A stretch of 64,000 bases of DNA from an uncultured Acidobacteriaceae bacterium. Lineage in GTDB: Bacteria; Acidobacteriota; Terriglobia; Terriglobales; Acidobacteriaceae. The first letter of the stretch is position 1; every line of letters begins with the position of its first letter. Below are positions 5,066 through 62,347 of this stretch, piece after piece. The notes below the pieces were generated by a model, which saw only the letters and a program-made list of their open reading frames with translations, did no database searches and was not told the origin of the DNA. The translations under genes were made by a program, and so were the position numbers. The stretch covers positions 285,661 through 349,660 of the forward strand of contig CAWIOA010000009.1 in the NCBI GenBank assembly GCA_963837665.1, read 5' to 3'.

Positions 5066-5274
5066 AGGTTGTGCAAAGTCGTGTCGCCCTCACCGGCGAA
5101 AGAGCTGTGTCCTTCCCAAAACGCAAAATGCCCGAGGGAATGCCCTGACGCGTCCCTAGTGTGCGAGCAGGGGTAGGGGTCCTTCGACTCCGCCGGAACT
5201 TCGCTTCGCGAAGTTTCTGCTCCGCTCAGGATGACATGGTTTTTATGGGTTCGAGGGTTTCCCTGTGATCCCCT

Positions 5275-6450
5275 GTGTCCCCAGCGGTGAAGGCTTTCAC
5301 CGAGACCTGCGTAAATGTTAGGCTGGCAGCGACCGTGAAGACGAATCCGCACTTCTATCCCGTAATTCTCGCTGGCGGCCGCGGCACGCGCTTCTGGCCG
5401 TTGAGCCGCAAGCGCCACGCTAAACAACTGCTGGCGCTCGACGGCAAACAGACCATGATCCAGCAGACGGTTAAACGCCTGGCGCCCATGGCCGCGCCGA
5501 GCCGGTTCTGGATCATCACGAACGACGACCTCCGGCCCGCTATTCTTCGACAGCTTCGGAGGCTTCCGGCGAAGCAGATTATTGCCGAGCCTGCCGCGCG
5601 CAACACAACTCCGGCGATTGGTTTAGCGGCATTTCTTTTGCTTCGTCAGGATCCCGACGCGGTGCTCGGACTGTTCCCCTCTGACCACGTCATCGCCGAC
5701 CCGGCTCAATACCGCGCGACCCTCAGCCAAGCAATCGAGATCGCCGCCGCCGGAGACAACATCGTTGTGCTCGGCATCCGCCCGACTCGCCCGGAAACCG
5801 GCTACGGCTATATCGAGGCTGGGGCTGCAGATCATGCTGGGACTTTGTCCCTGCGCGTGCGACGCTTCACGGAGAAACCGGACCGCGACCATGCCCGTCA
5901 GTTTCTTGACGCGGGCAACTACTTCTGGAACAGCGGCATGTTTCTGTGGCGCGCCGACACGCTGGCGAACGCGCTGCGCGAGCATCTTCCAAACACCGCG
6001 GTGCTGCTTGAAAGGATTGCCGCGGCCTATGGCACGCGCAAGTTCGCGGAAACGTTTCGAAAGCTCTACCCGAAGTGCGAGAACATCAGCGTCGACTACG
6101 CGATCCTCGAACCCCGCTCCGCCAAGGGCGCAGGCCAGTCGGGCATTCTCTGTCTGCCCTCCGACTTTGGATGGAACGATCTCGGCTCCTGGACCGCGCT
6201 GCATGAGCACCACGTGGCGAAGACGGGATCGCGCGATGGGAAACCGTCCTCAGCGTCCGGCAGTTTTGCCCTGAATGCGAGGAATAACTATGTTCATGCG
6301 CCCGGCAAGTTTGTCGCCCTGATCGGCGTGAGCAACCTGGTGATTGTCGAGACCGACGACGCACTGCTCGTTACCACGCTTGATCAGTCACAGGATGTGG
6401 GCAAAGTGGTGAAGCATCTGGATGAGAAGAAGCTGAAGAAGCTAGTGTGA
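5275..6450 (+). CDS. Mannose-1-phosphate guanylyltransferase
   Basis: VILAGGRGTRFWPLSR nucleotidyl-transferase P-loop, EPAARNTTPAI and GYGYIE motifs. The true start may be an internal GTG (about 5335). Confidence 0.88.
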   Translation: MSPAVKAFTETCVNVRLAATVKTNPHFYPVILAGGRGTRFWPLSRKRHAKQLLALDGKQTMIQQTVKRLAPMAAPSRFWIITNDDLRPAILRQLRRLPAKQIIAEPAARNTTPAIGLAAFLLLRQDPDAVLGLFPSDHVIADPAQYRATLSQAIEIAAAGDNIVVLGIRPTRPETGYGYIEAGAADHAGTLSLRVRRFTEKPDRDHARQFLDAGNYFWNSGMFLWRADTLANALREHLPNTAVLLERIAAAYGTRKFAETFRKLYPKCENISVDYAILEPRSAKGAGQSGILCLPSDFGWNDLGSWTALHEHHVAKTGSRDGKPSSASGSFALNARNNYVHAPGKFVALIGVSNLVIVETDDALLVTTLDQSQDVGKVVKHLDEKKLKKLV

Positions 6451-6572
6451 CGGTCGTTGGTCGTGGTCGTTAGTCGTTGGCAATCTTTGGACTTTCGATG
6501 CGAACGTGCTGCCGGAACGAACGGCGAACAGCGAGCGCCCAGCGACCAGCGACTATCGACCAACGACGAACT

Positions 6573-10327: not shown

Positions 10328-10331
10328 GATC

Positions 10332-10425
10332 GCAGAAGTCAGAAGTCAGATTCAGAAGTGAAAACCTTTCTCAGCACACTCCGCGTTAAAGAGTTTACTT
10401 CTGCAATCTGACTTCTGACTTCTGC
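10332..10425. repeat. Periodic-arm hairpin element (GTCAGAA-type units)
   Basis: Left arm 10332-10359 gcagaagtcagaagtcagattcagaagt. Right arm 10397-10425 acttctgcaatctgacttctgacttctgc is its reverse complement with one indel. It lies between convergent genes and overlaps the kdsB 3' end. Confidence 0.8.
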
Positions 10426-11138
10426 AATTTCAAGATCTCTTCTACTCTCCGCACGTCCTCTTCTGTGTCGACACCTACGGTGTCGAATGGCGTCTCTGCC
10501 ACATAAATCGGAACCCCGTTCTCGAGGAAGCGCAACTGCTCCAGGCGCTCGCTGCGCTCGAGCGGCGACTCCGGCCAGCGCACGAACTTGTCGAGCGCCT
10601 CTTTGCGATAGCCGTAGAATCCAAGATGTTTGTAGTATTGCGGCCGTACTTCATCGCGGTCATACGGGATAGTCGTTCTCGAAAAATACAACGCCCGTCC
10701 GACTGCGTCCGTCACCACCTTCACTGCGCTCGGATTGTTGATGTCGATCTCCGCGGCCGGCGTCTTCAAGGTTCCAACCTCGACCCCTGCGCCCTGCATC
10801 ACCGCGATCAAGCGGTCGATGTGCTCGGGCCGGGTCAGCGGCTCATCGCCCTGAACATTCAAATAGACATCCGCTGGAACGGCGGTCGAGATCTCATGCA
10901 CCCGCTCGGTGCCCGAACGATGGTCCGCCGAAGTCATCTGCGCGGCAAAGCCGTGCTGCTGGCAAAAGCGCATGATTTCACCGGAGTCGGTAGCGACGAT
11001 GACTTGATCGAGCGACGAGCACCGCCGCACTCCCTCATAGACCCAAGCCAGCAGCGGGACGCCCGCGATCTCGCGCAGCATCTTACGGGGCAGGCGCGTC
11101 GAAGCCAGGCGCGCCGGAATCACAGCGACGACTTTCAT
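10395..11138 (-). CDS. kdsB: 3-deoxy-manno-octulosonate cytidylyltransferase (CMP-KDO synthetase)
   Basis: MKVVAVIPARLASTRLPRKML N-terminus, NVQGDEPL, LEQLRFLENG motifs. Confidence 0.93.
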   Translation of the reverse strand: MKVVAVIPARLASTRLPRKMLREIAGVPLLAWVYEGVRRCSSLDQVIVATDSGEIMRFCQQHGFAAQMTSADHRSGTERVHEISTAVPADVYLNVQGDEPLTRPEHIDRLIAVMQGAGVEVGTLKTPAAEIDINNPSAVKVVTDAVGRALYFSRTTIPYDRDEVRPQYYKHLGFYGYRKEALDKFVRWPESPLERSERLEQLRFLENGVPIYVAETPFDTVGVDTEEDVRRVEEILKLQKSEVRLQK

Positions 11139-11794: not shown

Positions 11795-14215
11795 TTACTT
11801 GCCCGTACCCGTCAGATTCGAAGTCTGCGGGCCGTTGACCGCGCTGTCAGCCATGCTCAGCTGTCCCGTCCTCTTGCCTATCACGGTCGGGGTAAACGTC
11901 ACGCTAATCGTGCATTTGGCCTTGGCCTCCAGACTCGTCGTGCACGTTGTCGCCGAGACCGCAAAGTCTCCGGTCGTTGTGATTGCGATGCCGGTCAGTG
12001 GAACGGTCTGGTTGTTAGTCAAAGTGAACGTCTTCGGCAGACTGGTCGTGCCCACCTTCTGCGCCACGTAAGTGGCACTGGCCGGAGTCAGCGTCGCAGG
12101 CGTAATACCCGTGCCCGTCAGATTGGAGGTTTGCGGGCTGTTGCTGGCACTGTCGCTTACGCTCAACTGCCCCGTACGCGTCCCGATCGCCGTGGGGGTA
12201 AACGTCACGCTGATCGTGCATTTGGCCTTGGCCGCCAGACTCGTCCCGCAGGTCGTCGCCGAGACCGCAAAGTCTCCGGTCGTCGAGATGGCGATGCCGG
12301 TCAGCGTCACGGTCTGGTTGTTAGTCAAGGTAAACGTCTTCGGCAGACTGGTCGTGCCCTCCGCCTGTGCGGCGTAAGTAGCACTGGCCGGGGTCAGGGT
12401 CGCCGGCACGACGCCCGTGCCTGTGAGCGGTACGGTTTGCGGGCTGTTGTCGGCGCTGTCGCTCACGCTTAACTGCCCCGTCCTGTTGCCCGTTGTCGTC
12501 GGCGAGAACGTCACACTAATCGTGCATTTTCCTTTGGGGGCCAGGCTCGTCGCGCAAGCCGTGGCCGACACCGCAAAGTCTCCGGTCGTCGAGATTGCGA
12601 TGCTAGTCAGCGTTATGGTCTGGTTGTTGGTCAGCGTAAACGTCTTGGGCGAACTGGTCGTACCTACCGCCTGCGTGGCGTACGTGGCAGTGGCCGGGGT
12701 CAGCGTCGCCGACGGGACACCCGTGCCCGACAGCGCCACTGTCTGCGGGCTGTTGTCAGCGTTGTCGGTGATGGTGAGGGTCCCCGCCAGCGGGCCCAGC
12801 TGCGTGGGCGTGAAGGTGACACTGATCTTGCACTTCTTGCCCACGGCGAGCGTGGCGCCGCACGTATTTGCCAAAACCGCGAAGTCACCATTGATCGCGA
12901 CGTTGCTGATGGCCACAGAAACGGTACCGGTATTTGTCAACGTTATGTTCTTGGCAGCGCTGGTCGTGGAGGTCGCCTGAGGAGCGAAAGTGAGCGAAGT
13001 GGGCGAGAGTGTGACTGCGCCCGGCGCCAGCTCGAGGCTGAAGACCGTCCCGCAGCCGACCGTGCCGCAATTGCTGCTGGTACCTCCACGGAAGGTGGCG
13101 CCGTAGAATATCCCGTTCTTGGCTTGCACCAACCCTAAAGTTATCGCGCCGTCCGTGCCGTCGAAGCTGTGTAACGTGGTCAGGGTGCCCGTCGAGGTCA
13201 TTTTGAAAACGGTGCCACACCCGCCACCGCTGCAATTGCCGCTGCTACCTCCGAGTTCTGTGGTCCCGTAGAAGTCCCCGTCGGTGCCCTGCGCGAGCCC
13301 TGCTTCCGGGTAGGCGCCGTCCGTGTTATTGAAACTGTGTAGCGTGGTCAAGGTGCCCGCCGGGGTGATTTCAAAGACCGTGCCATAGTTGTTGGGCCCG
13401 TCGTCGTCGGTTGTCCCGTAGAAGTTCCCGTCGGCGCCTTGCGCGAGCCCCCCTATAGGGTAGGCGCCGTCCGTGTTATTGAAACTGTGCAGCGTGGTCA
13501 GGGTCCCCGCCAGCGTAATTTCGAAAACGGTGCCCAAGTTGTTGGTCCCGCCGTCCATGGTGGTGCCGTAGAAGTTCCCGTCGGAGCCCTGCACCAATCC
13601 AGCGTAAGGGTAAGAGCCGTCCGTGCCCGCGAAGGTGTAGAGCGTGGTCAGGGTGCCCGCCGGGGTCATTTTGAAAACGGTGCCCAAGTTGTTGCTCCCG
13701 CCGTACTCGGTTGTCCCGTAGAAGTTCCCGTCGGAGCCCTGCACCAATGCTGCGGTAGGCACAGCGCCGTCACTGACCACGAAGATGTGCAGCGTCGTCA
13801 GCGTACCGCTCGGAGTAATTTTGAAAACCGTGCCATGGCCGGTGCCGACTCCGCCAAAGCCTGTTGTCCCGTAGAAGTCCCCGTCGGTGCCTTGCACCAG
13901 TGCCGCGGTAGGGTTGGCGCCGTCGGTGCAGCTGCTTTGGGCGCAAAAACTGTACAGCGTGGTTAGCGCGCCCTCCGCTGTGATTTGAAAGACCGTGCCA
14001 GAGCCGTTGGCCCCACCGTAGAACGTTGTCCCGTAGAAGTTCCCGTCAGTGCCCTGGATGAGAGACGTCCCTGGATCAGCACCGTTGGTCATGTCGAAAT
14101 TTACCAGCGTGGTAAAGGTTTGCGCCGGGGATGCTATCGCCGTCACAGCCAACAACACAAAGACGATGGAGGTCATTCCCGTTAAGCAAGAAATCGTGAC
14201 CAGCGCTCGTTTCAT
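11795..14215 (-). CDS. Secreted repeat protein: N-terminal GloVer (Gloeo_Verruco-like) beta-propeller repeats plus four C-terminal Ig-like choice-of-anchor-D/HYDIN-like repeats
   Basis: Start set at ATG 14215 (MKRALVTISCL... signal peptide, AAGGAGGAA RBS upstream). About 8 repeats of GTDGNFYGTT..GG..G.GTVF..T..G.LTTL. Then there are four roughly 102-aa repeats, LTNN.T..L..I...GDFAV....C...L....KC.I.V.F.P...G.R.G.L...D.A.NSPQ. Confidence 0.8.
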   Translation of the reverse strand: MKRALVTISCLTGMTSIVFVLLAVTAIASPAQTFTTLVNFDMTNGADPGTSLIQGTDGNFYGTTFYGGANGSGTVFQITAEGALTTLYSFCAQSSCTDGANPTAALVQGTDGDFYGTTGFGGVGTGHGTVFKITPSGTLTTLHIFVVSDGAVPTAALVQGSDGNFYGTTEYGGSNNLGTVFKMTPAGTLTTLYTFAGTDGSYPYAGLVQGSDGNFYGTTMDGGTNNLGTVFEITLAGTLTTLHSFNNTDGAYPIGGLAQGADGNFYGTTDDDGPNNYGTVFEITPAGTLTTLHSFNNTDGAYPEAGLAQGTDGDFYGTTELGGSSGNCSGGGCGTVFKMTSTGTLTTLHSFDGTDGAITLGLVQAKNGIFYGATFRGGTSSNCGTVGCGTVFSLELAPGAVTLSPTSLTFAPQATSTTSAAKNITLTNTGTVSVAISNVAINGDFAVLANTCGATLAVGKKCKISVTFTPTQLGPLAGTLTITDNADNSPQTVALSGTGVPSATLTPATATYATQAVGTTSSPKTFTLTNNQTITLTSIAISTTGDFAVSATACATSLAPKGKCTISVTFSPTTTGNRTGQLSVSDSADNSPQTVPLTGTGVVPATLTPASATYAAQAEGTTSLPKTFTLTNNQTVTLTGIAISTTGDFAVSATTCGTSLAAKAKCTISVTFTPTAIGTRTGQLSVSDSASNSPQTSNLTGTGITPATLTPASATYVAQKVGTTSLPKTFTLTNNQTVPLTGIAITTTGDFAVSATTCTTSLEAKAKCTISVTFTPTVIGKRTGQLSMADSAVNGPQTSNLTGTGK
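11798..12709 (-). repeat. Three near-identical tandem coding repeats of about 306 bp (a fourth, more diverged unit extends to about 13015)
   Basis: Protein units ATLTPA(S/T)ATY...LTGTG recur with 102-aa spacing. DNA at 11801 and 12107 aligns with few mismatches. Confidence 0.8.
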
Positions 14216-14639
14216 AAACCTTCCTCCTTGGAAATTTCCAGACTGAGACTGTGAGAATTGCGATTCTTTACCACAGGAGCAGACCATCGGTGAGCTACCC
14301 CTCCCAAGGCGACCCATCTCCGAGTCAAGCAACTGCCGAAACGCAGAGCCCAAGAAACCCGAGCGTCCCGTTTTTCCTCGTGCCGAATCACCCGGGCGAG
14401 CTTTCAAGCTTGCTTCCCTACTTGTACATGTGAGAAACGGGGGGAAATTGGCTCAAAGACGCGAGAAACTTAAAGAAATTCCTATCGTTCTTTAAGACCG
14501 CTGCTGTTGGCGAGGTGTTGAAAAGCACGGCTTCGATGTTCCCAATCCCTCAGAAACGAGGTAGTAAGGAGAGGTTGGACTCGGCTCACGGCAACTCGGA
14601 ACCTGTTCGTTTTTGGCATAATATCGCATCTCTAACAAT

Positions 14640-25474: not shown

Positions 25475-27353
25475 GTGTGCCGAACATGTTCGACAGCTAG
25501 GGGGTGAAAGTCCCCTGCCCAACCTGGTGGAGGTGAAGGGCTAGAGAAGCGCAAGGGCGTCGTCGCGAGGCGGGGTCTGAAAGAAGCGTGGATCAAAGGC
25601 GCGAGCCGATGGACAAGAACCGGATAACGAGGCCTACGGTGTGGGGCGAGTTGGCAAAGGACAGCGAAGCCCGTGTCCACCAAGCACACTGGTGGTAAAT
25701 CCGGCGGTTGCGCGTCGAAGGCGGTCGAACTTACTTCGGGAGACCCGCCGCATGTCACGGAATCGTGACTGAGGATGGAGCGATTCATCCTGACCGTGGG
25801 GCGGGAGTCAGCAGCGGGCATAGTAGGCCGCGAGGTCGAAGGCCCAAACAGCCAGGAGCGGCGAGTAGGACGCAGGACTCGATGAACGACAAGCGGCAGA
25901 AAAACCAGCTACAGATGGCGCTGGCCTTTACCGGGGAGGGGAGGAGTGAAGCTCCAAGGGCTCCGCGGGAAGGGACCGAATCGTTCACGGCGAAGTGCGA
26001 AACCGAAAGTCCGGCTGGAGAAGAGCAACTGATGGAAGAGGTCTGCGGGCGGGAAAACTGTCAGCGGGCTTTACGACGAGTGAAGGCCAACAAGGGCAGT
26101 CCGGGAATCGACGACATGAAAGTGTCGGAGTTGCCGGGCTACCTGAAGCAGCACTGGCCAGCGATTCGGGAACAACTGTTGAGCGGGACTTATCAACCGC
26201 AACCGGTGCGGCGAGTGGAAATAGCCAAACCGGACGGAGGGATGCGCAAGCTGGGCATTCCGACGGTGTTGGATCGGTTTATTCAGCAGGCGGTGATGCA
26301 GGTTCTGCAAGTCAGATGGGACCCGACGTTTTCCGAACATAGTCACGGGTTTCGTCCGCAACGTTCGGCGCATCAGGCGGTGGCCAAGGCGCAGCAGTAT
26401 ATCGCCGAGGGCAACCGCTGGGTGGTGGATCTCGATCTGGAAAAGTTCTTTGATCGAGTGAATCACGACAAACTGATGGCGGCGATCGCGCGGCGGGTGA
26501 GCGACAAGAGGATGCTCAAGCTGATCCGAGCTTTTCTGGAGTCGGGCGTGATGGAGAACGGGTTGGTGAGTTCGGTGGAGGAAGGAACTCCGCAAGGAGG
26601 ACCTCTGTCACCGCTGCTGTCGAATCTCGTGCTCGACGAACTCGACCGGGAGTTGGAGCGACGTAAGCACCGTTTCGTGCGCTACGCGGATGATTGCAAT
26701 ATCTACGTGGCCAGCGAGCGGGCGGGGAAGCGAGTCATGCAAAGCGTGACCGGTTTCCTGCGGCGGCGACTCAAGCTCAAGGTGAATGAGGCGAAGAGCG
26801 CGGTGGCGCGACCGCAGGAGCGCAAGTTCCTGGGCTTCAGCTTTACCGGCAGGAGAGAACCGAAACGGCGCATCGCGCCTAAGGCTCTCGACCGCTGTAA
26901 GCGAAAAGTACGGGAACTCACGCGACGAACACGGGGCATCAGTCTGGAACAGATGATGAAGCAACTCGCCACCTATTTACGTGGCTGGAAGAGTTACTTC
27001 GGCTTCAGCCAGACGCCCTCGGTGCTGCGTAGGCTGGAGGAATGGATGCGACGCAGGTTGCGATCCGTGATCTGGAAGCAATGGAAGCGCAGCAAGGTGC
27101 GGTATGTGAAGCTGCGCCAGCGGAACATCGGACATGCCCTCGCGGCACAAACCGCCGGCAGTCCCTATGGACCATGGCGTCTGGCCAACAGCCCGGCCCT
27201 GTCGTCTGCGTTTCCGATTGCTTACTTCGACGTGCTCGGTCTTCCTCGCTTGTTGGACGTGCTCTAGCTTAACCGAACTGAACCGCCGTATGCGGACCCG
27301 CATGTACGGTGGTGTGGCAGGGGAGGAGAGGTGACTCTCCCCCCTATGCCGAT
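25475..27353 (+). mobile_element. Group II intron, copy 1 (1879 nt, IIC-like)
   Basis: Limits were defined by where the two copies start and stop being identical. 5' GTGTG, 3' ...GAT. Domain V is at 27283-27312 (ccgccgtatgcg-gacc-cgcatgtacggtgg with a 2-nt bulge), followed by a domain VI hairpin. Encodes an RT/maturase in domain IV. Confidence 0.9.
25882..27267 (+). CDS. Group II intron reverse transcriptase/maturase (no endonuclease domain evident)
   Basis: Start at ATG 25882 (MNDKRQKN). RT motifs GSPGIDDM, RRVEIAKPDGGMRKLGIPTVLDRFIQQA, GTPQGGPLSPLLSN, VRYADDCNIY (YADD). Maturase X region LRGWKSYFGF. No HNH/Zn motif at the C-terminus. Confidence 0.95.
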   Translation: MNDKRQKNQLQMALAFTGEGRSEAPRAPREGTESFTAKCETESPAGEEQLMEEVCGRENCQRALRRVKANKGSPGIDDMKVSELPGYLKQHWPAIREQLLSGTYQPQPVRRVEIAKPDGGMRKLGIPTVLDRFIQQAVMQVLQVRWDPTFSEHSHGFRPQRSAHQAVAKAQQYIAEGNRWVVDLDLEKFFDRVNHDKLMAAIARRVSDKRMLKLIRAFLESGVMENGLVSSVEEGTPQGGPLSPLLSNLVLDELDRELERRKHRFVRYADDCNIYVASERAGKRVMQSVTGFLRRRLKLKVNEAKSAVARPQERKFLGFSFTGRREPKRRIAPKALDRCKRKVRELTRRTRGISLEQMMKQLATYLRGWKSYFGFSQTPSVLRRLEEWMRRRLRSVIWKQWKRSKVRYVKLRQRNIGHALAAQTAGSPYGPWRLANSPALSSAFPIAYFDVLGLPRLLDVL

Positions 27354-34038: not shown

Positions 34039-34073
34039 TCCGGCGAGAGAGCACAAGAGTGAAGCTAGGGACA

Positions 34074-34101
34074 GCCGCAGCGTTGCTGCGGCGTTTTCTT
34101 T
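34074..34101 (+). terminator. Rho-independent terminator (also the insertion site of intron copy 2)
   Basis: gccgcagc-gtt-gctgcggc (8-bp stem) followed by gttttcttt. The intron begins at the next base. Confidence 0.75.
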
Positions 34102-35980
34102 GTGTGCCGAACATGTTCGACAGCTAGGGGGTGAAAGTCCCCTGCCCAACCTGGTGGAGGTGAAGGGCTAGAGAAGCGCAAGGGCGTCGTCGCGAGGCGG
34201 GGTCTGAAAGAAGCGTGGATCAAAGGCGCGAGCCGATGGACAAGAACCGGATAACGAGGCCTACGGTGTGGGGCGAGTTGGCAAAGGACAGCGAAGCCCG
34301 TGTCCACCAAGCACACTGGTGGTAAATCCGGCGGTTGCGCGTCGAAGGCGGTCGAACTTACTTCGGGAGACCCGCCGCATGTCACGGAATCGTGACTGAG
34401 GATGGAGCGATTCATCCTGACCGTGGGGCGGGAGTCAGCAGCGGGCATAGTAGGCCGCGAGGTCGAAGGCCCAAACAGCCAGGAGCGGCGAGTAGGACGC
34501 AGGACTCGATGAACGACAAGCGGCAGAAAAACCAGCTACAGATGGCGCTGGCCTTTACCGGGGAGGGGAGGAGTGAAGCTCCAAGGGCTCCGCGGGAAGG
34601 GACCGAATCGTTCACGGCGAAGTGCGAAACCGAAAGTCCGGCTGGAGAAGAGCAACTGATGGAAGAGGTCTGCGGGCGGGAAAACTGTCAGCGGGCTTTA
34701 CGACGAGTGAAGGCCAACAAGGGCAGTCCGGGAATCGACGACATGAAAGTGTCGGAGTTGCCGGGCTACCTGAAGCAGCACTGGCCAGCGATTCGGGAAC
34801 AACTGTTGAGCGGGACTTATCAACCGCAACCGGTGCGGCGAGTGGAAATAGCCAAACCGGACGGAGGGATGCGCAAGCTGGGCATTCCGACGGTGTTGGA
34901 TCGGTTTATTCAGCAGGCGGTGATGCAGGTTCTGCAAGTCAGATGGGACCCGACGTTTTCCGAACATAGTCACGGGTTTCGTCCGCAACGTTCGGCGCAT
35001 CAGGCGGTGGCCAAGGCGCAGCAGTATATCGCCGAGGGCAACCGCTGGGTGGTGGATCTCGATCTGGAAAAGTTCTTTGATCGAGTGAATCACGACAAAC
35101 TGATGGCGGCGATCGCGCGGCGGGTGAGCGACAAGAGGATGCTCAAGCTGATCCGAGCTTTTCTGGAGTCGGGCGTGATGGAGAACGGGTTGGTGAGTTC
35201 GGTGGAGGAAGGAACTCCGCAAGGAGGACCTCTGTCACCGCTGCTGTCGAATCTCGTGCTCGACGAACTCGACCGGGAGTTGGAGCGACGTAAGCACCGT
35301 TTCGTGCGCTACGCGGATGATTGCAATATCTACGTGGCCAGCGAGCGGGCGGGGAAGCGAGTCATGCAAAGCGTGACCGGTTTCCTGCGGCGGCGACTCA
35401 AGCTCAAGGTGAATGAGGCGAAGAGCGCGGTGGCGCGACCGCAGGAGCGCAAGTTCCTGGGCTTCAGCTTTACCGGCAGGAGAGAACCGAAACGGCGCAT
35501 CGCGCCTAAGGCTCTCGACCGCTGTAAGCGAAAAGTACGGGAACTCACGCGACGAACACGGGGCATCAGTCTGGAACAGATGATGAAGCAACTCGCCACC
35601 TATTTACGTGGCTGGAAGAGTTACTTCGGCTTCAGCCAGACGCCCTCGGTGCTGCGTAGGCTGGAGGAATGGATGCGACGCAGGTTGCGATCCGTGATCT
35701 GGAAGCAATGGAAGCGCAGCAAGGTGCGGTATGTGAAGCTGCGCCAGCGGAACATCGGACATGCCCTCGCGGCACAAACCGCCGGCAGTCCCTATGGACC
35801 ATGGCGTCTGGCCAACAGCCCGGCCCTGTCGTCTGCGTTTCCGATTGCTTACTTCGACGTGCTCGGTCTTCCTCGCTTGTTGGACGTGCTCTAGCTTAAC
35901 CGAACTGAACCGCCGTATGCGGACCCGCATGTACGGTGGTGTGGCAGGGGAGGAGAGGTGACTCTCCCCCCTATGCCGAT
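34102..35980 (+). mobile_element. Group II intron, copy 2 (1879 nt)
   Basis: Every ORF-track translation inside it is identical to copy 1, with a constant offset of 8627 nt. Same GTGTG...GAT ends. Domain V is at 35910-35939. Confidence 0.9.
34509..35894 (+). CDS. Group II intron reverse transcriptase/maturase (identical to 25882-27267)
   Basis: Identical 519-aa ORF-track translation. Functional start inferred at the MNDKRQKN methionine. Confidence 0.95.
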   Translation: MNDKRQKNQLQMALAFTGEGRSEAPRAPREGTESFTAKCETESPAGEEQLMEEVCGRENCQRALRRVKANKGSPGIDDMKVSELPGYLKQHWPAIREQLLSGTYQPQPVRRVEIAKPDGGMRKLGIPTVLDRFIQQAVMQVLQVRWDPTFSEHSHGFRPQRSAHQAVAKAQQYIAEGNRWVVDLDLEKFFDRVNHDKLMAAIARRVSDKRMLKLIRAFLESGVMENGLVSSVEEGTPQGGPLSPLLSNLVLDELDRELERRKHRFVRYADDCNIYVASERAGKRVMQSVTGFLRRRLKLKVNEAKSAVARPQERKFLGFSFTGRREPKRRIAPKALDRCKRKVRELTRRTRGISLEQMMKQLATYLRGWKSYFGFSQTPSVLRRLEEWMRRRLRSVIWKQWKRSKVRYVKLRQRNIGHALAAQTAGSPYGPWRLANSPALSSAFPIAYFDVLGLPRLLDVL

Positions 35981-39902: not shown

Positions 39903-40190
39903 GGGGCTCCTGGGTTCCTCCGCATCATGGCGGAAGGCGAAATCAAAGTGCGCGGTTTGTCATAAACCACTTGAACTTCGAGCACGTTGTTGGGACTGGC
40001 AACCGTTGATATGTACATCAGAAGAGTGCGTTTAGGCAAGCGATTAGGTGAATTACCGACGGGCTGAAACTGACTGGCAAGGGCTGTCTTTGCTCTGGCC
40101 TTGTCACCGCATTGCGTTTGCGGGCACCTTTCTTTAGATTCAAGGAGCGAGATTACTGGCGTGTCGGAGCTATTTCTAGTGCCTTCTGTT

Positions 40191-41075
40191 ATGCGTTCCG
40201 AAAACTTCAACGGGCACTCCATGACAGGCAAACTGTTGCGGGTGATGGTGTGTCCGCCCGGTAATGCCGGGTGGGACATTTCCGGGAAGGCGGCGGAGTG
40301 GCGGGAGCTTGGATTCAGGCATGCTCCCGATTTTGCGGCGGCGCAGAGGCAGCATGAGGTTTTTTGCGGGCTCCTCAGCGAGAGCGGAGCCGAGGTCGTG
40401 AGCCTGCCCGCGGCGGCATCGCTTACACTCGACGCCGTCTATGCGCACGACGCGTCACTGGCCACAGACCATGGTCTGGTACTGATGAATCCGGCAAAGA
40501 AGAATCGCGTGGCGGAGGCGCAGGCGCACGGCAGCTTTTGCGGGCAACTGCGTATTCCGGTGCTTGGCGCGATCGGACTGCCCGGGACCTCGGAAGCCGG
40601 CGACATTGTGTGGCTCGATTCGCAGACGCTCCTGATCGGTGACGGCTATCGGACGAACAAGGCGGGAATCGAGCAAATGCGGTCGCTGCTCCGTTCCAAG
40701 AATGTTGAAGTGCTCTCCGCACCGTTGCCTTACGGACCGGGACCTGCGGCTTGTCTGCACCTGATGTCGCTGATGAGCATGCTGGATGAGCAGACCATTC
40801 TGGTCGATTTGCCGTGGCTTGCGGTCGAGACGGTTGAACTGCTGAAGGGGCGAGGCTTCCGGCTGGTAGAGATCGATTACGGCGAGCGCGACACACTCGC
40901 TTGCAACGTGCTCTCGCTTGGGCAGAAGCGGCTGATTGCGATTGAAGAGAACATCAAGACAAATCAGCGGCTGCGCGATGCCGGGTTTGATGTCCGCACT
41001 TTCCCCGGGGTGGAGATCTGCATCAACGGGGCGGGCGGGCCGACTTGCCTGACTCGGCCGCTGCTGCGGGAGTAG
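40191..41075 (+). CDS. Guanidino-group-modifying enzyme superfamily protein (arginine deiminase / DDAH / amidinotransferase-like)
   Basis: Pentein-type motifs: VYAHDAS, SEAGDIVWL, LIGDGYRTN, CLHLMS, and C-terminal catalytic-Cys motif GAGGPTCLTRPL. The start (40191 or 40221) is uncertain. Confidence 0.65.
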   Translation: MRSENFNGHSMTGKLLRVMVCPPGNAGWDISGKAAEWRELGFRHAPDFAAAQRQHEVFCGLLSESGAEVVSLPAAASLTLDAVYAHDASLATDHGLVLMNPAKKNRVAEAQAHGSFCGQLRIPVLGAIGLPGTSEAGDIVWLDSQTLLIGDGYRTNKAGIEQMRSLLRSKNVEVLSAPLPYGPGPAACLHLMSLMSMLDEQTILVDLPWLAVETVELLKGRGFRLVEIDYGERDTLACNVLSLGQKRLIAIEENIKTNQRLRDAGFDVRTFPGVEICINGAGGPTCLTRPLLRE

Positions 41076-41169
41076 CGGAGTAGTCGGTAGTCGTTTGTAG
41101 TTCAGGGGCTTGGATTGATAAGTTTTGTTACCCGGCCCCATTCCACCCGCCTTGGTAGAATCAAAAAGA

Positions 41170-45656: not shown

Positions 45657-45711
45657 TGTGTGGTGACGGGGCTTCGCCCCGTCTTGCGGGGCAGAGGCCC
45701 GCCACCACACA
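45657..45711. terminator. Compound hairpin between convergent galU and purE
   Basis: Outer stem tgtgtggtg/caccacaca encloses acggggc-ttc-gccccgt. There is no long T-tract, so its function as a bidirectional terminator is inferred from position only. Confidence 0.4.
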
Positions 45712-46227: not shown

Positions 46228-46269
46228 GAGTGTCGGTGTCGAACCTCGTTAGAGTTATTAATTCCCATT

Positions 46270-46346
46270 GTCATCCTGAGCGAAGCGAAGGACCTGCTTT
46301 GTGCCGACGCCGCGAACAGCAGGTCCTTCGCTTCGCTCAGGATGAC
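46270..46346. repeat. 28-bp perfect inverted repeat gtcatcctgagcgaagcgaaggacctgc / gcaggtccttcgcttcgctcaggatgac
   Basis: Arms at 46270-46297 and 46319-46346 with a 21-nt spacer, in the purE-purD intergenic region. A diverged half-copy ends in gctcaggatgac at about 5190-5236. Confidence 0.85.
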
Positions 46347-46402
46347 AATACAATAATGTGATGACGGCGCAAACTTAGTGGCGCGAAGTATCGAACGCGA
46401 TC

Positions 46403-47677: not shown

Positions 47678-47727
47678 AGTCAGGACATTTAAGGGTAGGG
47701 GCGGAAGAAGATGATGTCAAACGGGAA

Positions 47728-47853
47728 CAGATTGCAGAGGTCAGAGGTCAGATTGCAGAGGTTCACCCCTTGCGACGAAAAAAGTATTAGCGAAAATCAG
47801 GGCTGACGCCTTTTTGGTTTTAACCTCTGCAATCTGACCTCTAACCTCTGACC
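47728..47853. repeat. Periodic-arm hairpin element (GGTCAGA-type units)
   Basis: Left arm 47728-47763 cagattgcagaggtcagaggtcagattgcagaggtt. Right arm 47822-47853 aacctctgcaatctgacctctaacctctgacc. A tttggtttta core sits next to the right arm. Lies in the divergent purD/mntR intergenic region. Confidence 0.8.
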
Positions 47854-47902
47854 TTTCTTCTTTTGCTTAACCACGCTTAATCCCGCCGTATAATCTGTTC
47901 AC

Positions 47903-48571
47903 GTGATCACCGTTTCCAAAGAGGACTACCTCAAAGCGATTCTCGAAGCCGAAAGCGAAGGAGAGCCCGTTATTTCGGCTACGCTCGCGCACTGGCTCAA
48001 AGTCTCGCCTCCGGCCATAACGATGGCGGTGCGCCGTCTGAAAAAGGACGGTCTGGTACGGGTGCATGCCGGCGGGCGGGTTCGCCTGACTGCTGCCGGA
48101 CGACGGATTGCCCGCAAGCTGACGGTGCGCCATCACCTGATCGAGCGCATGCTTGCCGAAATTTTCGGAATGGAATGGTACAAGGTGCACGACGAGGCGG
48201 AACGATTGGAGCACGCGGTCTCGCCCGATTTTGAGGCCAGGCTGCTGGCCAAACTTGGGCGTGGAGTCGCGTGTCCGCACGGCAACCTGACCGAGCTGGA
48301 AAGTCCCGCCAGCCGGCGGCGTCGCGGCCTGCTGCTGCTCTCGGAAGCTGAGGTTGGGAAGAACTACGCTGTCAGTGGGATCTACGAGCGCGACCGGCAC
48401 CTGCTGGAGTTTCTGGAAGCCCGTGGCATCCGGCCCGGGGCCAAGCTCAGCTTGATTGAGAGCAACTACGACAAGACACTCTCCATCCGGACTGCGGCAA
48501 ACGCCGTCGTTCTAGGAAGACCTGCGGCAGAGCGAGTGTGGATTGTTCCGCTGTCATCCCGTTCTTCATAA
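47903..48571 (+). CDS. mntR: DtxR/MntR-family metal-dependent transcriptional regulator
   Basis: SKEDYLKAILEAESEGEPVISATLAHWLKVSPPAITMAVRRLKKDGLV wHTH, RHHLIERML dimerisation helix, and a C-terminal FeoA/SH3-like domain. Adjacent to mntH. Confidence 0.82.
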   Translation: MITVSKEDYLKAILEAESEGEPVISATLAHWLKVSPPAITMAVRRLKKDGLVRVHAGGRVRLTAAGRRIARKLTVRHHLIERMLAEIFGMEWYKVHDEAERLEHAVSPDFEARLLAKLGRGVACPHGNLTELESPASRRRRGLLLLSEAEVGKNYAVSGIYERDRHLLEFLEARGIRPGAKLSLIESNYDKTLSIRTAANAVVLGRPAAERVWIVPLSSRSS

Positions 48572-54376: not shown

Positions 54377-54476
54377 AGAAAGTGGAAGGTGGATAGTTGT
54401 CAGTGGATAGTTGCTAGCGATCGGTGTGCTTGCTTACCACTATTCACTATTCACTGTCCGCTGCTACTCTGACCTC

Positions 54477-57314: not shown

Positions 57315-57321
57315 TTTGGTT

Positions 57322-57396
57322 TTCCTTCGTGTACCTTGGTGTCCTTGGTGGTTGCGGAAAACCCCATAACCACCAAGGACACTAAGGAACACGAAG
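57322..57396. repeat. Periodic-arm hairpin element (CCTTGGTG-type units)
   Basis: Left arm 57322-57353 ttccttcgtgtaccttggtgtccttggtggtt. Right arm 57368-57396 aaccaccaaggacactaaggaacacgaag. A tttggttttcc core at 57315-57325 precedes it. Confidence 0.8.
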
Positions 57397-58712: not shown

Positions 58713-58800
58713 GCAGGTGTCAGGTCTCAGGTGTCAGGAAAGACCTGAGCCGCCTTTGGTTTTCCTGAGACCTGAGACCTGACACCTGACACCTAAGACC
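58713..58800. repeat. Periodic-arm hairpin element (GGTGTCA/GGTCTCA-type units)
   Basis: gcaggtgtcaggtctcaggtgtcagg ... cctttggttttcc tgagacctgagacctgacacctgacacctaagacc. Confidence 0.8.
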
Positions 58801-58814
58801 TTTTCGGAGGACTC

Positions 58815-59208: not shown

Positions 59209-59291
59209 GCAGGTCTTAGGTGTCAGGTCTTAGGTCTCAGGGAAACCAAAGGTGGGCTAACTTCGTCCCTAAAACCTGATACCTTCTCCTG
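59209..59291. repeat. Periodic-arm hairpin element, inverted copy of the 58713-58800 element
   Basis: gcaggtcttaggtgtcaggtcttaggtctcagg gaaaccaaaggtgggc. Its reverse complement aligns with 58750-58800. The partner arm ccctaaaacctgatacct is degenerate. Confidence 0.7.
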
Positions 59292-62295: not shown

Positions 62296-62347
62296 GGGTG
62301 GGATTTTGCTGAGAGCTGATAGCTGACAGCTGAGAGCCGATTCAAAG

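Follow-up and report, generated by a model that had tools for sequence, protein, structure and literature searches.

How can the two arms of an intergenic hairpin stay complementary when the short tandem units that compose them differ from one hairpin to the next? The question arises from a 64,000-nt stretch of the genome of an uncultured Acidobacteriaceae bacterium (GenBank assembly GCA_963837665.1, contig CAWIOA010000009.1, positions 285,661 to 349,660; G+C content 59%), which we call the window and whose own numbering is used throughout, and in particular from the hairpin at 47728-47854 between purD and a gene for a DtxR/MntR-type regulator (the focal element). An earlier note on the window had listed eleven intergenic sites of this kind, and had proposed that selection on structure or a templated copy mechanism, rather than transposition, keeps the arms matched. 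The feature is real and statistically solid. We argue here that the sites are probably, if far from certainly, copies of a superfamily of small non-coding palindromic elements with microsatellite arms that extends over the Terriglobales.

Heptameric arrays in the window and in related genomes

All 11 period-7 arrays that Tandem Repeats Finder reports in the window lie within the listed sites (array starts at 6452, 6534, 10333, 10407, 47735, 47833, 54438, 58714, 58764, 59210 and 62308), and arrays of 8-10-nt units are found at 411, 5261 and 57323. A separate scan of the non-coding DNA of the window (7.6 kb) found six period-7 runs, compared with 0.01 in dinucleotide shuffles. The longest inverted repeats of the window are the arms of these elements, with the exception of one unrelated 32-nt palindrome, and the complementarity on which the earlier note had let its proposal depend is upheld, at 93-97% over 24-29 nt: the arms at 47735-47763 and 47822-47850 are 97% complementary over 29 nt, those at 57325-57353 and 57368-57396 are 93% complementary over 29 nt, those at 58714-58741 and 58761-58788 are 96% complementary over 28 nt, and those at 10329-10352 and 10405-10428 are 96% complementary over 24 nt.

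Seven of the 11 sites form strong hairpins, with folding energies of about -35 to -62 kcal/mol and z-scores of -3.3 to -10.3 against shuffled sequences: 47728 (-62 kcal/mol, z -8.8), 58713 (-58.9, z -9.5), 57322 (-56.1, z -10.3), 10332 (-53.5, z -9.1), 6452 (-58.4, z -5.0), 54382 (-34.7, z -4.6) and 59209 (-35.1, z -3.3). The remaining four (411, 5256, 41072 and 62308; z 0.0 to -1.6) have no partner and are solo arrays or half-elements, so the eleven sites are not all of one kind. A short core had also been said to abut one arm at several sites. The motif TTTGGTTTTM occurs three times without mismatch in the window (0.21 expected), all three copies abut arms, and a copy with one mismatch is found at 59241 on the minus strand; the cores claimed at 5256 and 438 are weak.

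The closest relatives of the window genes are in uncultured Acidobacteriaceae/Terriglobales metagenome-assembled genomes (MAGs), with a protein identity of 93% for purD and 94% for the FAD oxidoreductase. Our comparison set consists of purD neighbourhoods and 21-kb neighbourhoods of the oxidoreductase operon from about 120 related species (comparison loci are given L numbers, e.g. L003); depending on the analysis, 1.5-2.7 Mb of relatives' DNA were scanned. Period 7 accounts for 203 arrays in the 1.78 Mb used for period counts, and periods 6, 8 and 9 account for 41, 46 and 50, respectively. As the earlier note had expected of a feature of intergenic DNA, 85% of period-7 arrays (150 out of 177) lie outside genes, i.e. 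outside a crude coding mask, in 21% of the DNA; nearly all period-6 arrays are coding. A reverse-complement partner is present within 160 nt for 61% of the period-7 arrays (119 out of 196) and for none of 41 period-6 arrays. The relatives' arrays comprise more than 50 different heptamers. These counts are pseudo-replicated, and the independent sample size is overstated, because orthologous sites are counted repeatedly across species; despite this, the direction of every lineage-wide array result (period, location and pairing) is unambiguous.

The elements are about 60-160 bp long and have terminal inverted repeats; their ends include (G)ATTGCAG...CTGCAAT(C), AAG-CAGGTCT and GAACCTTAAC-CACAG. 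The 5' arm is made of three to five (up to more than 20) tandem units of 7-9 nt, mostly starting with CAG. Among 110 hairpins, CAG outnumbers CTG in the 5' arm in 77, and the reverse holds in five. A is enriched at the start of their loops (40% A) and T at the end (40% T); outside the arms, the left flank is A-rich and the right flank T-rich. A GAAAAC-type segment is found at the 5' edge of the loop in 28 and GTTTTC at the 3' edge in 34 of the 110 hairpins; the reverse arrangement is seen in two and six. Given this polarity, the core of the earlier note is the innermost A/T-rich part of the stem. The inner core is common to several unit families, and its polarity is that of a bidirectional terminator. 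From left to right, an element consists of an A-rich flank, the 5' arm, an inner A-rich stem GAAAACC, a variable loop, GGTTTTC, the 3' arm and a T-rich flank. The median distance between an array and the stop codon is 12 nt, and 56% of the arrays begin no more than 15 nt from a stop; array density per kb is 0.93 in co-directional gaps, 0.45 in convergent gaps and 0.39 in divergent gaps.

Dispersed families and their turnover

The units fall into families, namely CAGARGT/CAGATTG, YAGGTST, CACAGRGG, CCTTNGTGT, GGTCGTT and others, each of which is present at many loci. For example, the 21-mer CAGARGTCAGATTGCAGARGT of a focal arm is found in at least 118 stretches of a species-representative genome collection (a lower bound), all from Terriglobales MAGs, at several loci per genome and in at least five copies on one contig; it is also present in the window at 10405-10428 on the minus strand. 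The copies share a higher-order arrangement of units, reading inwards (G)ATTG CAGAGGT CAGAGGT CAGATTG CAGAGGT [G/T]AAAAC on one side and, on the mirrored side, GGTTTT[C/A] ACCTCTG CAATCTG ACCTCTG ACCTCTG CAAT. Arms and inner stem are conserved among them, and their loops (7-80 nt) are unrelated to one another. CACAGRGG elements at different loci likewise have common, non-periodic outer ends (GAACCTTAAC...GTTAAGGTTC). The same repeat families are carried by a few predicted viral contigs of acidobacterial G+C content. Because the units form discrete, dispersed multi-copy families, most of the unit variation between loci is family membership; compensation locus by locus is not needed to explain it, and the earlier preference against transposition loses its ground.

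The same intergenic sites are occupied in species at 77-94% amino-acid identity and 45-73% identity at four-fold sites. Between purD and mntR, relatives have either the CAGAGGT family or a CAGAAGT copy nested inside that family; other relatives have the CGAGCTN, ATTGCCG or CACAGAG families, or a deletion that spares the final bases of an arm. The site between the oxidoreductase (DAO2) and CMD genes has at least five unit types. Orthologous sites that look empty keep remnants of arms and are therefore, for the most part, deletions. Copy number ranges from two to more than 23 units per arm and is unequal between arms (e.g. 4.6 and 23 in one element). Extreme expansions are seen in L214 (from 2977; more than 25 ACCTCTA units) and L083 (11894-12057; 23 CCTGAGA/CCTAAGA units), and in L215 (302-540) a block made of GGTTTGGGTTTTC and the right arm is triplicated. 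The loop occurs in both orientations at one site in close relatives: at the oxidoreductase site the window has AAAGACCTGAGCCGCCTTTGGTTTT and L081 its reverse complement, and at the purD site the homologous loop of L003 is opposite to that of the focal element. Such flips are the expected product of recombination between inverted arms.

Over 5.8 kb, two strains with 98.8% identity are separated by five indels, each of which falls within a repeat element or next to one: one arm of a hairpin has gained 14 nt (two units) and the opposite arm of that hairpin 7 nt (one unit), 93 nt are inserted in an arm of the next hairpin, one loop base differs, and 14 nt differ beside another array. The 93-nt insert (L344 4587-4679 compared with L081 11317) has 20-nt inverted termini (TAGGGAAACTCTGATTAAGT), contains the left half of a CACAGRGG element and sits in the arm of a YAGGTST hairpin; a TAGG duplication there is ambiguous, and its termini do not occur a second time among the comparison loci. 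At the rpsC|rplP site of the ribosomal protein operon (L163, L190, L205, L218, L219 and L233) we found hetero-arm elements: a short inner stem stands between a CAGAGGT array and an ACTGAGA array, these outer arrays lack complementarity, and the fold of one version is not significant. After arrival, elements thus reside at a site for long periods, gain and lose units as microsatellites do, largely independently in each arm, decay to solo arrays by deletion and receive insertions of other small elements.

The earlier note had suggested looking at orthologous sites for arms that turn over and yet remain matched, and this is what we see: unit types change, variants occur in both arms, and arm compositions are correlated. 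In the YAGGTST family the similarity of unit composition is 0.47 between the arms of one element and 0.41 between elements (permutation p = 0.016), and the arms correlate in their proportion of T-initial units (rho = 0.69). Variants present on both arms include CAGATTG/CAATCTG versus CAAATTG/CAATTTG (L081-L083) and CAGGTCG/CAGGGGG (L138). The mirror order of variant units is weak (p = 0.17 in a fixed register, p = 0.004 if a shift of one unit is allowed). The arms are therefore likely to exchange some sequence. Most of the matching is explained by independent slippage in two arrays that are already complementary; a templated mechanism acting across the arms is possible, and independent slippage would keep the arms matched too.

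Elements of the window and their neighbours

The 5' arm of the focal element (47728-47763) reads CAGATTG CAGAGGT CAGAGGT CAGATTG CAGAGGT T, and its 3' arm (47822-47854) reads AACCTCTG CAATCTG ACCTCTA ACCTCTG ACCT. Nested in the 58-nt loop (47764-47821) is a small hairpin (47799-47812), followed by the T-rich core TTTGGTTTTA (47813-47822). The element occupies the space between two divergent -35 boxes: just to its left, a conserved TTGACA on the minus strand (about 47712-47717) belongs to the divergent purD promoter, and to its right a promoter-like site (47867-47894, plus strand) precedes the DtxR/MntR-type regulator gene (47903-48571). The purD promoter (TTGACA ... TACCCTTAAAT) is conserved throughout the clade. 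The palindromic box TTAAGC(N4)GTTAA, which is conserved (window 47855-47902; about 2700-3000 in L001-L032), coincides in part with the -35 region of the regulator gene and is probably the regulator's own operator. In the focal arms and the family copies, the 5' unit GAGGT resembles the Shine-Dalgarno core and the 3' unit ACCTC the anti-Shine-Dalgarno end of 16S rRNA.

A second member of the focal family, with CAGAAGT units, is at 10329-10428 between the convergent genes of an M48 peptidase and a kdsB-like protein (arms 10329-10359 and 10398-10428; inner GAAAACC at 10360-10366). The earlier note had remarked that elements reach into open reading frames (ORFs), and here the last ~10 codons of the kdsB-like ORF (LQKSEVRLQK*) are within the right arm (10395-10428, minus strand), so that the repeat supplies the C-terminal tail and the stop codon of the protein. 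Two hairpins of the YAGGTST family stand close together. The one at 58713-58801 (arms 58714-58741 and 58761-58801; loop AAAGACCTGAGCCGCCTTTGGTTTT) is between the FAD oxidoreductase and CMD-family genes, and the one at 59209-59291 follows the CMD gene, has a loop of opposite orientation (GGGAAACCAAAGG...) and a degenerate 3' arm, and is directly followed by a conserved promoter-like TTGATA/TATAAT. The hairpin at 57315-57396 has 9-10-nt units (CCTTNGTGT; arms 57325-57353 and 57368-57396), with TTTGGTTTTC (57315-57324) outside the 5' arm and GGAAAACC inside the loop. GGTCGTT and AGCGACC arrays (6452-6480 and 6534-6571) form the hairpin at 6452-6571, between genes for mannose-1-P guanylyltransferase-like and phosphoglucomutase-like proteins, and GTGGATA and CACTATT arrays the one at 54382-54459, immediately preceded by a stop codon.

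As to the solo arrays, the one at 411-447 consists of three copies of CACAGAGG and looks like a left half-element of the dispersed CACAGRGG palindrome family, and the one at 5256-5282 (CCCTGTGAT/CCCCTGTGT) resembles the right half of the same family and adjoins a fragment of the GTCATCCTGAGCG palindrome family. The array at 41072-41105 (GTAGTCG-like) overlaps the stop codon of the ORF at 40101-41075. The array at 62308-62337 (4.3 copies of GCTGAGA) remains an unpaired array at this position in about 20 related species, where its unit drifts (CTGAAAG, ACTGAGA and others).

Other repeats are present in the window. A perfect 32-nt palindrome, ATTGTCATCCTGAGCGAAGCGAAGGACCTGCT (46267-46349, -67.8 kcal/mol, z -14; also at about 5210-5245), represents a second dispersed palindrome family, which is found upstream of purD in L017-L019, L025 and L027 and inserted in the loop of a CAGAAGT hairpin in L222. 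A third palindrome type (TGTGTGGTGACGGGGCTTCGCCCCG / CGGGGC...CCACCACACA) is at 45657-45711, and a sequence like it occupies the intergenic oxidoreductase site of L094. The ORF at 11795-14407 (minus strand, 870 aa) contains tandem repeats of 306 nt (3.1 copies) and 150 nt (3.8 copies) and probably encodes a repetitive surface or adhesin-type protein.

A group II intron is present in two identical copies (25500-27353 and 34127-35980, plus strand; each with a 519-aa ORF; Rfam RF02001, RF01998 and RF00029), both of which start with GTGTGCCGAACATG directly behind a T-rich tail (...TTCTTT). At 34072-34100, ahead of the second copy, is a canonical GC-rich terminator hairpin, which is how bacterial introns that target terminators insert. 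The suggestion that such introns or IS110-family elements target the heptamer hairpins was rejected: both intron copies in the window follow the T-rich tail of ordinary sequence, and their targets are ordinary terminators.

Competing explanations and known relatives

If the sites are copies of a Terriglobales-wide superfamily, the two arms of an element would descend from one palindromic copy, and slippage in either arm would duplicate a unit that is already complementary to the opposite arm; occasional correction from arm to arm may add to the matching, and loops would presumably invert by recombination between arms. New copies could arise by mobilisation in trans, as for repetitive extragenic palindromic (REP) sequences and transposable elements of the miniature inverted-repeat type (MITEs), or by recombination-based spread, and the elements may be tolerated mainly just after stop codons in co-directional gene clusters. 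Transcribed copies would form hairpins of 25-35 bp that could act as REP-type 3' hairpins, as terminator-like barriers or as RNase III sites.

Several observations weigh against this interpretation. We found no clean target-site duplication and most empty sites are deletions, so that recent transposition of a hairpin is not demonstrated. Arm pairs 0.3-3.5 kb apart flank only ordinary genes and revealed no autonomous partner, and a tblastn search of 2.67 Mb with IS200 TnpA found no transposase; both tests are weak, the TnpA query being an approximate sequence. The YAGGTST element with its characteristic loop is seen only at two neighbouring sites and on one viral contig, and a scan of metagenomes with a 24-mer spanning loop and arm returned only two orthologous sites, so this family is not widely dispersed together with its loop. 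The conservation of loops at orthologous sites equals or exceeds that of four-fold sites, which hints at some constraint beyond a purely selfish model; the oxidoreductase|CMD loop, for example, is about 80-90% identical in species with 58-65% four-fold-site identity. The pseudo-replication of many counts across orthologous sites has to be added. Finally, similar hairpins in other phyla favour a general process over a lineage-specific mobile element: control purD loci from Binatia, Syntrophomonadaceae and Thermodesulfobacteriota have inverted heptamer arrays with significant folds (z -2.8, -4.8 and -5.5). Such hairpins or arrays stand beside purD in L043 (2712-2793), L047 (2686-2775), L077 (2814-2903) and L063 (993-1045), whose hosts include a Bacillota MAG besides the three control groups. 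The L047 unit GTCGTTA resembles the window unit GGTCGTT.

These hairpins in Binatia, Syntrophomonadaceae and Thermodesulfobacteriota would be expected if the elements arise locally and without mobility, slippage growing heptamers out of existing hairpin stems, hairpin-templated correction keeping the arms alike and the unit being invented anew at each locus. The over-representation of heptameric repeats in many bacteria (PMC4692102) agrees with such an origin, as do the inner core with its terminator polarity (A-run on the 5' side, T-run on the 3' side), the long residence of elements at one site, the gain of units in both arms of one hairpin between strains and the more than 50 different units. 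However, the arrangement of two CAGARGT units, CAGATTG, CAGARGT and GAAAAC recurs at far more than 100 unrelated loci, the mirror order of variant units is weak, and different CACAGRGG loci share unique outer ends (GAACCTTAAC...GTTAAGGTTC), which excludes an independent origin for those elements. As a full account we consider local origin unlikely, yet hairpin-seeded slippage is a live alternative for how the arrays originated. In a broader form, a process that is independent of transposases would act in many phyla, in which a stem-loop seeds heptamer slippage and hairpin-templated repair copies the changes into the opposite arm, making palindromes grow and diversify where they stand, or in which an unrecognised enzyme adds or recognises 7-nt units. 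We regard this as a speculative possibility with a small chance of being correct; if true, it would explain the heptamer excess of bacteria and define a new class of self-propagating structural DNA.

The earlier note favoured selection on structure, and the hairpins might accordingly be selected as terminators, attenuators or stabilisers of mRNA 3' ends, with compensatory changes in the arms. The start of 56% of the arrays within 15 nt of a stop codon, the A-rich left and T-rich right flanks, the promoter-like site directly after the 59209 element, the very stable folds and, in some comparisons, a conservation of loop and arms above that of four-fold sites are consistent with a role of this kind. 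However, transition mismatches show no bias that would mark the RNA strand (36 G.U and 27 A.C on the sense strand, p = 0.31), and a search of Rfam at gathering and E-value thresholds matched no family, giving only spurious sub-threshold matches to miRNA hairpins. Arrays are sparser in convergent than in co-directional gaps and occur also in divergent promoter regions, including the focal site between its -35 boxes; loop orientation flips freely; arms differ greatly in length; hetero-arm versions that do not pair are conserved; the element is lost at a site in many species; and ordinary GC-rich terminators are present in the same window. The data look like dynamics at the DNA level rather than selection for RNA structure, and we hold the functional RNA explanation to be doubtful.

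The arrays could instead be binding sites, the CAG heptad being recognised by a nucleoid protein, a regulator or an unknown nuclease or recombinase and the hairpin being secondary. This would suit the conservation of the 62308 solo array in about 20 species, the conserved hetero-arm pairs, the strong CAG phase bias of 5' arms and the paralogous copies that conserve arms and not loops; we think it very improbable, as there are more than 50 units, many of them without CAG, units drift within one site, the number of copies is highly unstable and no candidate protein was identified. Integron attC sites, CRISPR arrays and riboswitches were dropped from consideration (the flanking genes are housekeeping genes, there are no spacer arrays and Rfam gave no match).

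The closest known case is that of the heptameric repeats of Xanthomonas (GGGAATC) and Nostoc (GGGGAYT), which are intergenic and occur singly or as convergent inverted pairs, with 70-75 such pairs per Xanthomonas genome (Rehm et al. 2015, PMC4692102). Their position is kept between species while length and sequence vary, the single or paired type is preserved, they are rarer than expected between divergent genes, and the study identified no function (PMC4692102). The Terriglobales elements are alike in having tandem 7-nt units that are mostly intergenic, single arrays as well as inverted pairs, sites kept with variation and a low density in divergent gaps. Unlike the G-rich, quadruplex-prone units of Xanthomonas and Nostoc, they form dozens of families that mostly start with CAG and lack tracts of three or more G (e.g. 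CAGAGGT, CAGGTCT and GGTCGTT); they have a conserved inner stem (GAAAACC/GGTTTTC) and a unit order, with CAGATTG interspersed, that is conserved over more than 100 copies. Loop inversions, hetero-arms and nested insertions are documented here, and the phylum is a different one, Acidobacteriota.

Next in likeness are REP and MITE elements. REP/BIME/REPIN sequences are short multi-copy extragenic palindromes that lie just downstream of stops and within operons, as single units, inverted dimers or clusters, and their copy number is dynamic (PMC3733652). The Terriglobales elements share the multi-copy palindromes just after stops and in operons, the single and paired forms and the dynamic copy number; REPs, however, are 20-40 bp long, are not made of tandem heptamers, have a GTAG/CGTC tag and are tied to REP-flanked genes for REP-associated tyrosine transposases (RAYTs), whereas the elements described here are 60-160 bp long and lack the tag, and no such genes were seen in the sampled sequence. 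With MITEs (e.g. Correia and cyanobacterial Nezha-type elements) they share small size, terminal inverted repeats, multi-copy intergenic occurrence, presence or absence at a site and nested insertions. Unlike in MITEs, the internal sequence of the main family is not conserved and the arms are microsatellite arrays of variable length, and the sampled sequence revealed neither a clear target-site duplication nor an autonomous insertion sequence (IS) with matching ends.

The A-tract/stem-loop/T-tract polarity of inner core and flanks and the position at gene ends recall bidirectional intrinsic terminators, but the repeat stems of 25-35 bp are far longer, no consistent U-tract directly follows the 3' arm, and the elements occur between divergent promoters. 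In cyanobacteria, short tandemly repeated repetitive (STRR) sequences also comprise several tandem heptamers dispersed in the intergenic DNA of one lineage; their units are reportedly CCCCAGT, TTGGTCA and CAACAGT, with GGTCA and CAGT cores similar to those seen here, and they belong to another phylum. The STRR heptanucleotide repeats go back to Mazel et al. 1990, and the heptamer excess of many bacteria was first noted by Mrazek et al. 2007, both as cited in PMC4692102. Our literature search found no report that links heptamer repeats with Acidobacteria, and the repeat sequences matched only unrelated eukaryotic items. The earlier note, which did not recognise a described repeat family, was right in part: the elements are undescribed for Acidobacteriota, and they are of a kind already known, as single and inverted-pair heptameric repeats, from Xanthomonas and cyanobacteria (PMC4692102).

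The excess of heptamers in bacterial intergenic DNA has been known since 2007, and the 2015 study of Xanthomonas and Nostoc identified no role for them. The Terriglobales provide richer material, with dozens of families, a shared core, long residence, strain indels confined to repeats, inversions, derivatives and look-alikes, so that slippage versus transposition and the DNA versus the RNA level become testable with existing metagenomes and a few cultured relatives. In practice, short-read assemblies will break at the elements, which also provide strain markers and give proteins repeat-encoded tails, as in the kdsB-like gene here; they may further influence the expression of operons in a phylum that is among the most abundant in soil.

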